IMG/VR virus record: IMGVR_UViG_3300006217_000030
Coordinates: 1-64,000 of that record
From: a virus
Direction: 5' to 3' (one strand)
Length of the DNA stretch: 64,000 nucleotides
Part shown: in pieces, positions 35,506 through 41,690 of the stretch
Position numbering within the stretch: position 1 is the first letter of the stretch
Layout: each line of letters begins with the position of its first letter
Translations under genes and position numbers: made by a program
Notes under the pieces: generated by a model
Told to the model about the DNA's origin: nothing
The model's input: only the letters and a program-made list of their open reading frames with translations
Database searches by the model: none

Positions 35506-35609
35506 ACTATATATTTATATTATTGTGGAGTAATACATAAGAGTTGTGGACACTCTTTTGGTTGTATGATAAAATAAGTCTAATAATAGTAATAGTAGGA
35601 GGGCATATA

Positions 35610-36089
35610 ATGAGAATTAAAAATATATGTTTTAATTGTAGCCAAATATCACGTAATAATGATGAAATATGTCCAATATGTAATAATCGTTTTATTAAAG
35701 TTAACATAATTGATGCAATAAAACTTGACAATATGAGCGAGGAAAGTGTATTAAAGTGGATTGAAAGTAAAACAGGATATCCTATAAAAAATGAAGAACT
35801 AGCCAAACATCAAAAATATGTCAACGGTGTACTTCAACAATATCAATGTCAAAAAGAGCAGGAGAGGATTAATAAACAATTCGAAGATTACTCAGCAAAA
35901 TTAGAACATGGACGACAAATTCTTGAAGAGCAGAAGTGTGTTCCGAAGTGTCCTATCTGTAATTCAGCAAATATCAAAAAGATTTCTATTGGAACTAGGG
36001 CAGTAAAGACAGCAGCATTTGGTGTTTATGGTGCTGTCGACGATGCAGGGAAAACATATAAGTGTAGTAAATGTGGTTGTAAGTTTTAG
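35610..36089 (+). CDS. Double zinc-ribbon protein (~160 aa)
   Basis: Start trimmed to the ATG at 35610 with AGGAGG RBS. CFNCSQ...CPICNN and CPKCPICNS...CSKCGC Cys pairs. Opposite orientation to the late operon. Confidence 0.45.
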   Translation: MRIKNICFNCSQISRNNDEICPICNNRFIKVNIIDAIKLDNMSEESVLKWIESKTGYPIKNEELAKHQKYVNGVLQQYQCQKEQERINKQFEDYSAKLEHGRQILEEQKCVPKCPICNSANIKKISIGTRAVKTAAFGVYGAVDDAGKTYKCSKCGCKF

Positions 36090-36155
36090 ATACATATATA
36101 TATTATCAAGTAATTCACATTTAAGAAAATAGCTAATAAGAAAGGATACCTGATT

Positions 36156-37646
36156 TTAGGCATCCTGTTCAATAAAATTTATAGATGTGTCCATTTTATC
36201 ACTTATGCTTTTATACATCTTTAAAGTACCATCAGACATATAAATTAAATTACAATTTTTGCATTTACGTATATGAAGTGTATGTTTAAAGCTACTATCT
36301 TCTTTATAATATGTAACAAGTAATTTATCCATTTGTGTTTTAGTTTTGCATTTTTCACAAAGCTTTATTTTGTTTTTAGGAAGAACATGGACATTTACTT
36401 TTTGTTTGATTTCTTGAGTTACATCAGAAATAGGATTTTTAGATATCCATTTTTCTAATCTATTTCGATGCATTTTCTCGTTCCATTGCATATAAATTAT
36501 GTACACTTTATCGTTTATATGCAATTTTGGATTCTGAGCATAATAGGCGTTCTTTTTATCCTTAGGAATAGTTTGCTCTTTTAATGGTTTTTCATTGTCG
36601 ATTTCCTTCAAAAGTGGGTAAGAAATATTTAAAGTATCTTTACACCAATCTCTATCTAAGAAATTTTTAATATCATATGATAAATTTTTATTTTTAAAAT
36701 ACTCCTGAAAATAATTATATGCAACTTTGGAAACAGAATATTCTGGCTTTGATTCACTATTATTATTTCCATCTTTTTTTGCATTTATCTTCATCTCTGA
36801 TTTGTAATCGTATGTATTATCTTTGTATATTCCCAATGGTTCTTGACCATGTCTAGGATGTCTATCACTTTTTAAATATATTTTAACAGAAGAAGGAGAT
36901 ATTTTATAAATATCAAGCATTTTAAGTATAATTTTTATTTTTTGTGTTGTGCTTGTTGTTCCTTCCAAAATAATACCTGTATTTAAAAATCTTAAAGGAT
37001 TGGTGATATTTTGAGCAATTTTATCATTTTCGTATACAATATATGACTTTTTATGCCCTTTTATCTTATGCCAAGTAGCGATTTCTTTAAACTTATTACT
37101 GTCTTTATTATATAAAATTTCACATAATTTTAACCAAATTTCCTTATATGTTTTTACATTATATGTTTCACCTCTAAATGAGAAACTATGTGGGGTAGTA
37201 TTTTCAAAATCAGAAGATAATGGATATGGTTTTGTATTATCAACTAGATATTTTTTATAATCTATTTTCCCTTCGCGTTCTTCAATCTCTTCATTTTCGT
37301 CTTCTGGAATATCTTCAATATCATTTTCTTCAATCAGTGTATCTTTAGATGTAACAACTTCTTCCATATTATTATCGAGAAAATTATTCAATTGATACTG
37401 AATATATTCTAATTGGTTATCTGCATTTTCAAAGTTATTGATGATTTCATCAGAATTTTTGTTTTTAAAATAGCTTTTGGCAATTGTAATATATTTTTCT
37501 GAAAGGGTAGCACGAGTATGCTCAATAATTTCAAGAAGATTATTTATATATTCATTCAAATCTTTAGCATGACTAGGTACTTCTTTTTGCAAAAAATCCA
37601 TAAGTTTATCCATATCTGCCATCATTCGTTCCTCACAATCATCCAT
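36156..37646 (-). CDS. hypothetical protein (496 aa) with an acidic N-terminal region and a C-terminal Cys4 zinc ribbon
   Basis: Acidic stretch EENDIEDIPEDENEEIEEREG. C-terminal CEKCKTK...CKNCNL. No recognisable enzymatic motif. Confidence 0.45.
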   Translation of the reverse strand: MDDCEERMMADMDKLMDFLQKEVPSHAKDLNEYINNLLEIIEHTRATLSEKYITIAKSYFKNKNSDEIINNFENADNQLEYIQYQLNNFLDNNMEEVVTSKDTLIEENDIEDIPEDENEEIEEREGKIDYKKYLVDNTKPYPLSSDFENTTPHSFSFRGETYNVKTYKEIWLKLCEILYNKDSNKFKEIATWHKIKGHKKSYIVYENDKIAQNITNPLRFLNTGIILEGTTSTTQKIKIILKMLDIYKISPSSVKIYLKSDRHPRHGQEPLGIYKDNTYDYKSEMKINAKKDGNNNSESKPEYSVSKVAYNYFQEYFKNKNLSYDIKNFLDRDWCKDTLNISYPLLKEIDNEKPLKEQTIPKDKKNAYYAQNPKLHINDKVYIIYMQWNEKMHRNRLEKWISKNPISDVTQEIKQKVNVHVLPKNKIKLCEKCKTKTQMDKLLVTYYKEDSSFKHTLHIRKCKNCNLIYMSDGTLKMYKSISDKMDTSINFIEQDA

Positions 37647-37996
37647 ATTTTGGAATAAATTACCAACTTTAATTTATCATATCATAAATTTTGTCAAAAT
37701 GCCATTCGAAACATTTGTTCTGATTTTGACTAATTCTTAAATTAGCTGACGATTGTAATGATAGTTGGTTTGGAATCTTTTGCATTACAGATGGTTATGG
37801 TGTGATCAAGGTGGTTTTCAAACAAAAAATCATGACAGGTGAATATATAAATTACATTCATTGAATTATAAGAAATATAGTGATATAATTACTGATAGAT
37901 GTAGATGTGTTGATGTGCAAGTTGATTAAACGTAGTAGTTGCTTAAAAAGACTTTTCTATTGGAAATTATCAATATTTATAGGTGGTGAATTTTTT

Positions 37997-39691: not shown

Positions 39692-40164
39692 CTTTTGCCC
39701 TCTGTTTCTTCTAACTCTGTATAAATAATTATTATAGCTGATACTAAAGACGTAATAATACTTTTGAAATTATTCTCGTCCAAATCCTCTGTTATTTCTT
39801 TAAATTTATTTCTATAATAGTAGGATATTTCCTCATTCTTATTTCTTAGAAATATATTACCAAATAATAATTTGGAATTAGCATTATTTACAGCTACAAG
39901 AGTAGATAGTAAACTATCTGCATCTTTTAATTTATAGATACCTGTACAAGCAATTGCAATAGTATTTTGTTCAATAGAACTAGATAAAATTACACGAATA
40001 TACCCTATAGATTTTAAAATTTCTGATTTAATATATTTATATGGATTAATATGTAACATATAAATTAATTCGTCTTCATTATCCAAATTGAAGTTTTGAT
40101 AATGAATATCTAGTTTTTCAAAAAAATATTCCAAATTATTCTTTAATATCTCTTTTTTATCCAT
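39688..40164 (-). CDS. hypothetical protein (158 aa)
   Basis: ORF overlapping the upstream gene by 8 nt. No recognisable motif. Confidence 0.45.
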   Translation of the reverse strand: MDKKEILKNNLEYFFEKLDIHYQNFNLDNEDELIYMLHINPYKYIKSEILKSIGYIRVILSSSIEQNTIAIACTGIYKLKDADSLLSTLVAVNNANSKLLFGNIFLRNKNEEISYYYRNKFKEITEDLDENNFKSIITSLVSAIIIIYTELEETEGKR

Positions 40165-40402
40165 AATCTTCCTCAGCGTTTCTAAAATATTCTTTTATAC
40201 TTTTTATTGTTTTGTAATCTTGCTGATCAAAAATCTGCACTCTGCTAATTTTATCATCAATACTAATAGAAAAATTATCATTGCTTAATATTGTTGTTCT
40301 ATTATTTTTAAAATGTAAATCTAAATTAAACTCTTTAATTAAATTTTTTAAATAATCTTTATTAGGAGAAAATTTATTTACAAATAATAAGTATTTGTAC
40401 AT
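40157..40402 (-). CDS. hypothetical protein (81 aa)
   Basis: ORF directly abutting the upstream gene stop. Confidence 0.4.
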   Translation of the reverse strand: MYKYLLFVNKFSPNKDYLKNLIKEFNLDLHFKNNRTTILSNDNFSISIDDKISRVQIFDQQDYKTIKSIKEYFRNAEEDYG

Positions 40403-40714
40403 CTATATTTCCTCCTTATTTTTCTTTAATTCTTCTTTATTCATTTCATACATATCTAAATAAAAAAATGTATCTTCTATTTCTAAACAATCATTGTTAT
40501 ATCGTTCTTTAAATTGTAACATAGAATTCTTATATCTTGGCGAACCAGAAGCCAAAACAAGTTCTATAATTTTTACAACTTCTATATTAGGGTTTTCTTT
40601 ATAAAATCTATCAATAAGTTCCTCAACTTTTTCATTAAATTTTGCTTTTTCTTCCAAAGCAATTTTTATATCATCTATTAAATTTTTCTTCATATGTAAT
40701 ATGAATCCCTCCAT
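40403..40714 (-). CDS. hypothetical protein (103 aa). First gene of the small-gene operon.
   Basis: RBS GGAGGG 9 nt upstream (aaaatggagggattcatattacatATG). AT-rich promoter region upstream with TTGACA (RC ~40928). Confidence 0.4.
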   Translation of the reverse strand: MEGFILHMKKNLIDDIKIALEEKAKFNEKVEELIDRFYKENPNIEVVKIIELVLASGSPRYKNSMLQFKERYNNDCLEIEDTFFYLDMYEMNKEELKKNKEEI

Positions 40715-41099
40715 TTTCTAGATAATAATTTTCATTAATAAGATATTATCATAAAATTGTAGGAATGTCTAGCACAAAATTAAAAAATAAAAATATAATT
40801 CATTAAAATTTTACTGTTACTCAGTTCCTAGTAGCAATAGTTTTAACGTTGAATGCACATATTTCGAAAAAAATATACAAAATTCGTTATTAAATTTGAA
40901 TTTTAGAAGTAAAACTTGTCAAAAATTCTCTAATTTAGTATAGATGTTATAAGAACTGCTTAAACATGTACCATACATAATAGAAAAATTAACATCATAC
41001 AATGATATGCGCACAAAAGCTGAAAATAACAATACTTCCATTGAAGTAGAGTTACATAGGCGAAATAATAAAGAGACTAAATAAGGCAGTCTTTTTATT

Positions 41100-41690
41100 T
41101 ATCATATTTTTCTCCGTTTCTTCCACCTACGGCTAGGAGAAATCCTAACATTATCTTATCCATTCCTACATAAAGTAGTTGCTATAAATGAATAGGAGAG
41201 CAGTATTACTCTTTACGGTTTTTTTACTCAGTCACGAGACAGACCGAAAACTGTGTGTGGAACCCCTATTACAAGCCATTTCTGACTCAAAATCGTTTAG
41301 ATTCTCTGAACACACCCATTATATACATAATAGGTTCCGTTGCTGATAGCCGATTTAGCTTTACATTTCCAGTGTAACGCCTGGCACTTAGGGATTGCTC
41401 CCGTGCCTAAATAACCTTCATTTCTGAATTTGACTTTTCTTGCCGTTACCGACACCCTTTCGGGATACATTCACGCACACCGTTTCCAGTCACGTTGTAG
41501 TGGGTTATTTTATATATACGGTATTTTTATTCTTTCTTTCCAGCACTGAGAGATAGCAACTCCCAATTACGATTTATTTTATAGAACATCGTGAGGTGAC
41601 TAGACTCACACATTCCTACCTTTGAAATTCATGTTTCATCCATAAATAACTTAGGTATGAAGGGCATATTCAAAACAAAAAACAGTTTAT
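41100..41690 (-). ncRNA. Candidate large structured noncoding RNA (~600 nt), possibly of the large ornate phage-associated RNA classes
   Basis: No ORF of 60 aa or more in any frame across ~600 nt. Conspicuously GC-richer than the flanking AT-rich DNA. Many nested hairpins (e.g. ggcac-ttagggattgctccc-gtgcc, ccc-tttc-ggg, gtgag...ctcac). Hairpin plus T-run at the ~41075 end. Strand is inferred from the co-orientation with tmpN. Confidence 0.3.

Follow-up and report, generated by a model that had tools for sequence, protein, structure and literature searches.

A predicted group I intron that most likely carries the accessory-gene island in the tape-measure gene of an SPbeta-like Lachnospiraceae prophage

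How can an essential structural gene of a phage keep working when it is split by several kilobases of foreign genes, some of them on the opposite strand? The question is raised by a 64,000-nt stretch of viral DNA (IMG/VR record IMGVR_UViG_3300006217_000030, positions 1 to 64,000; hereafter the window), which belongs to an SPbeta-like Lachnospiraceae prophage and in which a gene island of ~5.5 kb lies between two open reading frames (ORFs) for the tail tape-measure protein (TMP), one of 658 aa ("tmpN"; PF10145, PhageMin_Tail) and one of 2404 aa. We propose that the island is the cargo of a 6.2-kb group I intron seated in the TMP gene and that this intron is most likely spliced from the messenger RNA (mRNA); the splice sites restore the TMP frame exactly, and an essential gene could for that reason tolerate the island. 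The three parts of the interrupted gene are as follows.

41717..43663, minus strand: TMP exon 1, 649 codons ending ...FASFKNIG; its ORF (41687-43663) runs nine codons into the intron to a stop.
35503..41716, minus strand: predicted group I intron, 6,214 nt, beginning AAAUGCCG... and ending ...AUAGUAUG, with the terminal G as omega-G.
28291..35502, minus strand: TMP exon 2, 2,403 codons starting IFKTFDSD...

The island stands apart from its surroundings in both composition and orientation. The guanine-plus-cytosine (GC) content of the window is 31.9%, and that of the cargo (35560-41075) is 25.1%, compared with a mean of 32.4 +/- 2.3% in 475 other 5.5-kb windows, the lowest of which has 29.3%; the ribozyme part of the intron (41109-41716) has 37%. 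From 16.8 to 64 kb all long ORFs are on the minus strand except two, at 35610-36089 and 37997-38788, both of them inside the block, the rest of which is made up of five small minus-strand genes (39028-40714) and a minus-strand gene of 496 aa. The original prediction, made from the letters of the window, had described an AT-rich block of mixed orientation in an otherwise minus-strand late operon, lodged between the two halves of one TMP gene, and all of this holds, the last point because intron-free relatives are continuous across the junction. The bounds it gave (35506-41690) locate the block approximately but not exactly, the true element being 35503-41716, and the "ORF-free structured region" that it had placed next to the block (41109-41716) is better assigned to the same group I intron. 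A megablast search of the region against isolated phages returned no match, and a tRNA scan found no tRNA.

The two flanking ORFs are best read as halves of one TMP gene, split by 41716-35503. The exon 1 ORF starts at an ATG with a good Shine-Dalgarno (SD) sequence upstream (GAAGGAGG), matches PF10145 at residues 340-541 (E = 8e-21) and aligns with residues ~216-680 of YomI, the TMP of phi3T and SPbeta (SPbeta-group phage TMPs); YomU/V/W/X-type genes neighbour the TMP gene in relatives. Without 35503-41716 the window holds one reading frame of 3,052 codons, for a TMP of 3,052 aa, and both the last nine codons of tmpN (KCRISVRIS, followed by a stop) and the ATG of the 2404-aa ORF fall to the intron. 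The junction was searched with a chimeric query in which the end of the first ORF was fused to the start of the second. About 700 homologues match the first part only, so that the split is the rule in this phage clade (a clade that one source names as Lachnospiraceae), and three proteins (P0002, P0016 and P0021) cross the junction uninterrupted. The closest of them, P0002 (locus L091), reads ...GLFAGIKDIG IFKTFDSGIDKISSKWGMFGRSFND..., with KDIG/IFKTFDSG at the junction, where the window protein sides read ...GLFASFKNIG KCRISVRIS-stop and M IFKTFDSDIDKISSKWGMFGKSFND.... The intron-free DNA junction in P0002 is GGC/ATATTCAAAAC (...AAGGATATAGGC/ATATTCAAAACATTTGAC; in a longer form ...GATATAGGC/ATATTCAAAACATTTGAC), and joining 41717 of the window to 35502 gives ...AACATCGGT/ATATTCAAAACATTTGAC, which is in frame and encodes ...FKNIG/IFKTFDSD. 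What the intron-free allele lacks is exactly the C-terminal tail of the first ORF and the Met of the second. The ligated RNA is predicted to read ...AACAUCGGU/AUAUUCAAAAC, with the junction 20-mer AAGAACATCGGTATATTCAAAAC and the junction peptide NIGIFK, within ...FASFKNIGIFKTFDSDIDK....

Protein conservation among 120 tmpN homologues ends right after KNxG, with at least 10 different tails beyond this point. All of the 10 exon-2 homologues retrieved hold MIFKTF at the start or just inside it, two of these ORF calls extending upstream; within IMG/VR, exon 2 has no relatives. The "ATG" at 35505, ahead of exon 2, has no SD sequence and stands 12 nt downstream of an in-frame stop, unlike tmpN and all eight cargo genes, for which SD sequences are present. 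A split intein, or protein splicing more generally, was considered and rejected, as stop codons are present, intein blocks are missing and only an eight-residue tail follows the Cys.

The structured RNA with which the element begins is, by its predicted fold, a group I ribozyme core. Its parts, together with the hairpin that follows it, are listed here.

41109..41716, minus strand: ribozyme part, intron nt 1-608, group I core.
41711-41696, minus strand: hairpin B.
41675-41663, minus strand: guide sequence UUUUGAAUAU-GCC.
~41655-41640, minus strand: P2 with 11-nt GAAA receptor.
41609-41591, minus strand: P2.1.
41590-41583, minus strand: second 5'-exon-binding strand GAUGUUCU, intron nt 127-134.
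41575-41570 with 41295-41290, minus strand: P3.
41545-41540 with 41346-41341, minus strand: P4.
41304-41299 with 41265-41260, minus strand: P7.
41288-41273, minus strand: P8.
41142-41109, minus strand: terminal hairpin P9.3, with GUGGA in the loop.
41063..41092, minus strand: weak terminator-like hairpin with U-run directly after the ribozyme, read from the letters.

The order of the elements is that of group I introns (P1, P2, P2.1, P3, P4, P5 extension, P6, P7, J7/3, P8 and P9 to P9.3). The P5 extension is large and has several GNRA loops, P6 carries an 11-nt tetraloop receptor, J7/3 is AAA and the loop of P8 is GAAA. P3 occurs as AAAUCG/CGAUUU or GAAUCG/CGAUUC, a clean compensatory change, and P4 (UGCUGG/UCAGCA) is invariant; P7 is generally GAGUAU/GUACUC, with GAAUCU/GGGUUC in the window and GACUGU/ACAGUC elsewhere. 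Covariation was tested on an alignment of 35 distinct sequences with a hand-written model that includes the P3/P7 pseudoknot, the controls being 3' partners slid by 1-3 columns and 500 shuffles. Standard pairs fill 91.7% of the cells, as against 37-44% with partners slid; compensatory changes are seen in 68 of the 128 pairs (10-23 when slid); the model scores 0.337 for covariation and the slid controls at most 0.092; and 0 of the 500 shuffles matched the observed values. P3 is 100% paired, one of its pairs being AU in 27 sequences and GC in 8, P7 is 100% paired with two variable pairs (AU 20, CG 11 and GC 4; GC 32, CG 2 and AU 1), and P8 is 98.9% paired. The mapping of P6a and P9.3 on the alignment was partly out of register (P6a was dropped before the count, and helix 24, which is P9.3, is 55% paired), and these two helices are backed by inspection (CUCC/GGAG vs GUGU/ACAC) and not by the pair count. 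A pairing of UCAGCAGCGG with CGUGACUGA proposed by RNAalifold competes with P4; we prefer P4, the reading that Rfam gives to the same motifs in an intron of Shewanella phage FishSpeaker, and the competing pairing may be a peripheral contact.

The reach of this RNA can be followed in its relatives. In a comparison with L002, the viral contig nearest to the window (79% protein identity), nucleotide identity is ~75% in the coding sequence, reaches ~95% a few bases ahead of the tmpN stop, remains high over ~640 nt and is then lost. An exact 29-mer from the ribozyme stretch found the same RNA in five Lachnospiraceae genomes and one more viral contig, and the ribozyme core motif occurs in 72 metagenome contigs, mostly from the human gut. 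Homology among relatives ends just upstream of the hairpin at 41063-41092, so that the cargo would begin there. Hairpins of the same kind follow P9.3 in other variants; the one in the window was not called by a terminator scan and is possibly a terminator, or a structural insulator of the ribozyme from the cargo.

More distant relatives support the assignment of the core modules. A 35-nt piece of the P5 extension has 97% identity to Enterococcus myoviruses and to FishSpeaker: in Enterococcus phage Sw5 the shared piece lies between two fragments of a ribonucleotide-reductase gene (nrdE), beside an HNH endonuclease gene, and its FishSpeaker counterpart is found where a split RNA polymerase gene ends, with a match to the Rfam group I model RF00028 (72.5 bits, E = 2.8e-17). 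The P4, P5-extension and J6/7-P7 modules are common to the window RNA, the FishSpeaker intron and the Sw5 nrdE intron, and the motifs that Rfam aligns as P4 and J6/7-P7 in the FishSpeaker intron are those assigned so in the window. At the gathering score and at E <= 10, Rfam found no intron or other family on the window, on L002 or on the compact relative L017. It also misses the HNH-carrying nrdE intron of Sw5, and its silence on the window RNA is therefore a problem of sensitivity and not evidence against group I; since the standard covariance model misses this ribozyme, such introns are probably under-counted in metagenomes. A group II intron was rejected: the element starts AAAUGCC and ends UAUG (not GUGYG/AY), its AT-rich 3' tail has no domain V-like hairpin, and neither matches to RF00029 or D1-D4 nor a reverse transcriptase gene were found in the window element.

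How the predicted ribozyme would find its two splice sites can be read from two further elements.

41717..41727, minus strand: the 11 nt that end exon 1, AGAACAUCGGU, each of them paired with the intron.
35503..35556, minus strand: intron 3' tail, with hairpin AGAGU-GUCCACA-ACUCU at 35556-35540, a second UCCACA at 35531-35522, and the end ...AUAGUAUG with omega-G at 35503.

At the 5' splice site the exon bases GGU pair with the guide bases GCC (41665-41663), so that a U.G wobble stands at the splice site in all 35 sequences; the G-C pairs beside the wobble are present in 35 and 34 of them. The preceding eight exon bases (AGAACAUC) pair with GAUGUUCU, the strand that comes after P2 and P2.1, and this helix covaries in at least four independent lineages (AACACUG/CAGUGUU, AAUGUCG/CGAUAUU, AACUUUG/CGAAGUU and AACAUUG/CAAUGUU). 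The remainder of the guide, UUUUGAAUAU (41675-41666), perfectly complements AUAUUCAAAA of exon 2 (35502-35493) in a 10-bp P10, whose strands are near-invariant across the family, two variants keeping the pairing via G.U. The guide as a whole has the canonical order, 5' to 3', of 10 nt complementary to exon 2, a G, and CC pairing with exon 1. Another candidate for P1, exon CGGU with GCCG at intron nt 5-8, was ruled out, since these bases are in hairpin B and some variants have no GCC there; hairpin B covaries fully (CCGUA/UACGG, UUACG/CGUAA, CAUGC/GCAUG and CUGUAC/GUACAG).

At the other end of the element, homology among relatives picks up again ~60-110 nt ahead of the 3' splice site. Of the 12 distinct 3' ends collected from relatives, 11 terminate in G immediately before AUAUUYAAAAC, mostly as ..AUAGUAUG; the twelfth (L084) is a degenerate copy with no recognisable tail. 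The other tails each have one to three hairpins, which differ in their stems and have the loop UCCACA or, in a second intron class, UCAAACA. In this second class the P9.3 loop is GUUUGA, and the two loop states, GUGGA/UCCAC and GUUUGA/UCAAAC, match in all nine loci that have an intact P9.3 loop and a tail; in L080 the P9.3 loop is broken by an insertion. From these two covarying states, and not from a statistical test, we infer that contact between the P9.3 loop and the tail loop bridges the cargo to the distant 3' splice site.

Taken together, these elements suggest the following course of events. Between exon 1 and exon 2 the late transcript would cross a ribozyme core of ~610 nt, a cargo of ~5.5 kb and a 3' tail of ~55 nt. 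The ribozyme would grip the last 11 nt of exon 1 by two helices, one of them with the canonical U.G wobble, and would find the distant 3' splice site by the GUGGA/UCCAC loop-loop contact and the 10-bp P10 with exon 2, whereupon two transesterifications would remove 6,214 nt and yield an mRNA for one TMP of 3,052 aa. The stretch between core and 3' tail, being spliced out, would offer a neutral landing site for accessory genes on either strand, and cargo genes with ribosome-binding sites (RBSs) of their own could be expressed without TMP, in the lysogen for instance.

We hold this account to be probable, and several observations weigh against it. The case for splicing, for its cis mode and for the timing of cargo expression is drawn from sequence. 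We know of no group I intron, bacterial or phage, that reaches or exceeds 6 kb and holds genes on both strands. The transcript would have to cross convergent genes and two terminator-like hairpins (41092-41063 and 36166-36143). RF00028 has no match on the window or on the compact L017, either at the gathering score or at E <= 10. The ATG just before exon 2 is kept in nearly all relatives, which would also suit a start codon. P1 is unusual, with 3 bp round the splice site, all of them invariant and beyond the covariation check, and the main exon-binding helix lies ~75 nt farther downstream than P1.

Some of these points would be met if the same intron worked in two pieces, by trans-splicing. 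The tmpN-side transcript would then end after the ribozyme, exon 2 and the 3' tail would be made as a separate RNA, and the two would be assembled via the loop-loop contact, P10 and the held 5' exon. Such an arrangement would fit the terminator-like hairpin and U-run found immediately behind the ribozyme, at 41092-41063 in the window and likewise in other variants, a further hairpin of this kind after the 496-aa gene, and the cargo of more than 10 kb with convergent genes in relatives; the 11-nt exon-1 pairing, the 10-bp P10 and the kissing loops would all aid assembly. It is a live alternative but, in our view, an unlikely one: upstream of the 3' tail the minus strand has no convincing promoter (promoter-like sites are as frequent as chance would give, and the stretch is antisense to a zinc-ribbon gene), and the same elements occur in compact 1.6-kb versions, which are plainly cis introns. 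We also know of no case of group I trans-splicing in bacteria or phages.

It is very unlikely that no splicing takes place and that the TMP is made as two polypeptides of 658 and 2404 aa, the island being an intergenic moron cluster and the RNA a relic or an RNA with another role. Both ORFs are indeed intact and start with ATG, the second ATG being the one conserved among relatives, and Rfam finds no intron. However, the second ORF has no SD sequence while every neighbouring gene has one, and the intron-free allele is without precisely the tail of the first ORF and the Met of the second. The strong structural selection on the RNA, with an exon-binding strand that tracks changes in the exon, would be pointless without splicing, and the 10-nt complementarity to exon 2 and the agreement with the U.G and omega-G rules would be coincidence. 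Excision of the island as DNA by site-specific recombination before late expression, like sporulation intervening elements, is hardly credible: the gene interruption is precise and in frame, and SPbeta-type phages are themselves such elements in Bacillus, but no recombinase or integrase is found in the window island or in the 1.6-kb version (which has one small ORF of non-enzymatic appearance), no direct repeats were seen at either junction by reading (no repeat search was made), the boundaries obey RNA splice-site rules, and the covarying 610-nt RNA fold would go unexplained.

The comparison of relatives shows the position to be a hotspot for cargo. About 80 related loci have the same ribozyme and different cargo; homology stops after P9.3 and resumes at the 3' tail with the cargo in between differing, which is hotspot behaviour. 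Where exon 2 is on the same contig, intron length is 1.6, 2.4, 3.2, 4.7, 6.1, 6.2 or 7.5 kb, and in several long contigs exon 2 is still not reached more than 8-10 kb beyond the core. The compact version in Lachnospiraceae bacterium 10-1 (KE159799.1) measures 1.6 kb and consists of ~640 nt of RNA, one ORF of 255 aa and a ~165-nt tail, ...CAUAUG/AUAUUCAAAAC. Cargo ORFs of at least 100 aa in related loci number 153 and fall into 81 protein families at the same position. The original prediction had proposed this comparison and had taken the block for acquired moron or hotspot cargo: the foreign composition and the hotspot are borne out, but a plain moron insertion is not, since the cargo lies inside an intron.

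Only two of the 81 families recur widely, a GmrSD_N/DUF262 protein (22 loci) and an antisense zinc-ribbon protein (16 loci), and both are candidates for a mobility function. The former, which is not in the window, has ~325 aa, is always on the sense strand and directly after the ribozyme (e.g., L007 12557-13525, and L028), and has GmrSD_N/DUF262 as its sole domain, ParB-like and with a DGxQR motif; it may serve the intron itself, as a mobility or maturase-type protein, and not defence. Other cargo in relatives includes DUF3800, HTH_3, Bro-N/ANT antirepressors, TnpB, IS66 transposase, PemK, LytTR, a Peptidase_S24-GmrSD fusion and DUF2513, and in a prophage remnant TIR/ThsB-like, DHH and HD proteins lie upstream of an exon-2 fragment. 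Several of these domains (GmrSD_N, TIR/ThsB-like, PemK and DUF3800) are typical of defence or exclusion systems. TnpB (IS605 OrfB/Cas12f-like) comes right after the ribozyme in three of ~60 related loci (L019, L059 and L080), a position that gives these loci the look of an IStron, and in L065 and L087 IS66 is inside the intron cargo. In L012, L015-L017, L038 and L044, a group that includes KE159799.1 of Lachnospiraceae bacterium 10-1, the ribozyme follows a quite different upstream exon (...SFLASFGKQITTKISDYVKNIG/), which has only its last ~12 nt (AAGAACAUCGGU) in common with the exon found elsewhere. This suggests transfer of the intron to a different TMP-type gene via a short recognition site.

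The eight cargo genes of the window are listed below in the direction of the intron; some of their SD sequences fit a slightly downstream start codon.

40403..40693, minus strand: p103, probable start Met8 (96 aa); SD GGAGGG before the ATG at 40693; no family match.
40157..40402, minus strand: p81; SD AAGGAGG; no family match.
39688..40164, minus strand: p158; SD GAGGAAG; homologue in the cargo of L030; no family or PDB match.
39278..39691, minus strand: p137; SD AGAGGG before a GTG start; homologue in the cargo of L030.
39028..39198, minus strand: p56; SD AAGAGG; no family match.
37997..38788, plus strand: membrane-anchored 263-aa protein, antisense to the intron; SD GGTGGTGA; no PDB match.
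36156..37625, minus strand: p496, probable start Met8 or Met9.
35610..36089, plus strand: 159-aa double zinc-ribbon protein, antisense to the intron; SD AGGAGGG.

No convincing match in Pfam, PADLOC or PHROG was found for any of the eight proteins, in keeping with the earlier remark that none shows a motif that could be placed in a known family. The p137 product is judged to be a hydrophobic, multi-pass membrane protein by inspection. In the structural model of p496 (predicted local distance difference test score 77), a helical hairpin at the N terminus is followed by a central domain that weakly resembles the SeqA DNA-binding domain and, at the C terminus, by a Cys4 zinc ribbon; p496 has 40 homologues, none of them annotated, and a terminator-like hairpin follows its gene (36166-36143). 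Members of the zinc-ribbon gene family stand in the same place and orientation, directly before the 3' tail, in the 16 related loci, and the C-terminal ~50-aa module of the protein is widespread (714 matches among cluster representatives). The RBS and start of the zinc-ribbon gene are ~90-130 nt from the 3' splice site, and its transcription would therefore oppose read-through into exon 2.

The window cargo contains no homing endonuclease Pfam domain (LAGLIDADG, GIY-YIG, HNH or His-Cys box), and its proteins contain no OrfB_IS605 or Cas12f-like domain. The block had also been credited with promoters and SD-type RBSs of its own; the SD sequences are there for all eight genes, but sigma-70-like sites occur at chance level (49 found vs 51 expected). 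A further suggestion, that the block encodes a defence, superinfection-exclusion or anti-defence system, found no backing in PADLOC-DB 2.0, where 0 families matched any of the eight proteins at E <= 0.1, and the one hint is a weak match of the 263-aa membrane protein to PHROG 4980, "superinfection exclusion" (E = 0.007). By analogy with the cargo of relatives, we think accessory, exclusion or defence roles the most likely for these proteins.

Among known systems, the nearest in layout are the IStrons (CdISt1 of Clostridioides difficile and the CboIStrons of C. botulinum), in which an IA2 group I ribozyme at the 5' end is followed by protein-coding cargo and a distal 3' splice site, and which are wholly removed from the host mRNA, so that insertion in a gene is tolerated (10.1101/2023.11.20.567912). 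The window element shares the 5' ribozyme, the cargo and the distal 3' splice site, and three of its relatives have TnpB. It is not an IStron by the defining parts, however: its cargo has neither tnpA nor tnpB, and no sign of an omega-RNA was seen; it sits at one conserved homing-type site in the TMP gene, whereas IStrons occupy many sites defined by a transposon-adjacent motif; its cargo is a changing set of accessory genes on both strands, which can number ten or more and in the window take up 5.5 kb, and not an insertion sequence; and its 3' splice site is bridged by covarying kissing loops.

The phage introns of subgroup IA that carry homing-endonuclease ORFs (T4 td/nrdB/nrdD, Twort, SPbeta bnrdE/F, Enterococcus phage nrdE and the FishSpeaker RNA polymerase gene) share with the window intron the P4, P5-extension (35 nt, 97% identity) and J6/7-P7 modules, a site in an essential phage gene, and the U.G, omega-G and P10 rules. 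In T4 nrdD (sunY), too, the ORF follows the core on its 3' side, and a remote 3' domain is required. These introns measure ~0.25-1.5 kb, and any ORF in them is a single one for a homing endonuclease, on the sense strand, whereas the window intron has 6.2 kb, eight ORFs on both strands, no recognisable homing endonuclease and a split 5'-exon-binding site, and is missed by RF00028. Prophage hotspots for morons and defence genes, such as those of P2/P4-like phages, resemble the locus in their fixed position, their varying low-GC cargo and the defence-type domains in relatives, but they lie between genes, whereas here the cargo lies within an essential structural gene and would be harmless only via RNA splicing. 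Self-splicing introns in siphovirus tail or TMP genes are on record for cluster J mycobacteriophages and others (PMC3706429); these appear to be small introns that have no multi-gene cargo. No description of multi-gene or defence cargo in a group I intron was found in the literature searched, the coverage of which was incomplete, and this negative is not proof of absence.

Whether the pattern is general is a question on which we are evenly divided: TMP introns of SPbeta-like prophages in gut Lachnospiraceae may serve as a "safe harbour" in which accessory and defence cargo of 1 to >10 kb, on either strand, is held by kissing loops and long P1/P10 pairings, erased from the late mRNA and expressible in the lysogen. 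If so, self-splicing would take its place beside intergenic hotspots in shaping where phages keep accessory and defence genes, and no known group I intron of bacteria or phages would be larger or richer in genes than these, some of which possibly work in trans. The intron would explain how an essential structural gene, split by 6 to >10 kb of foreign genes, still works, and would correct the annotation, with one TMP of 3,052 aa replacing "tmpN" and the 2404-aa ORF. The IStron principle, by which a ribozyme hides an insertion at the RNA level, would extend from insertion sequences to islands of phage accessory genes, and introns would be a kind of cargo hotspot so far unrecognised, in which defence and counter-defence genes of gut prophages could also be sought. 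The ribozyme is of interest in itself for its split 5'-exon-binding site, its 10-bp P10 and its loop-loop bridge to a 3' splice site kilobases off. Production of the TMP, and with it of virions, would depend on splicing across the cargo, which could couple cargo transcription to the lytic programme.

The predicted intron is not the sole irregularity in the TMP genes of this clade. In L002 (IMGVR_UViG_3300010163_000052) a second, different insertion of ~1.9 kb (11398-13294), which is not in the window, interrupts exon 1 at a point that maps to window ~42030, between the tmpN codons for GGK and YQA, and the frame resumes exactly after it (...NVGGK / YQATKLAALL...). It has a 433-aa ORF, HNH-like by eye, gives no Rfam match at E <= 1 and is probably another intron. 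The exon-2 homologues P0121-P0193 have mostly 350-1000 aa, even on long contigs; L011 has two copies of the intron 3' tail plus the IFKTF exon start (at 10060 and 12425); and the P0002 gene, otherwise intron-free, stops at residue 1079, with TMP-like sequence returning 60 nt on (L091 3314-3377). The TMP gene of this clade may hold more introns, or may be decaying in some prophages. Elsewhere in the window, at ~16700, GC skew and gene orientation flip together, with plus-strand genes at 1-16681 and minus-strand genes from 16842 on, and this point is the border of two divergent phage transcription modules.

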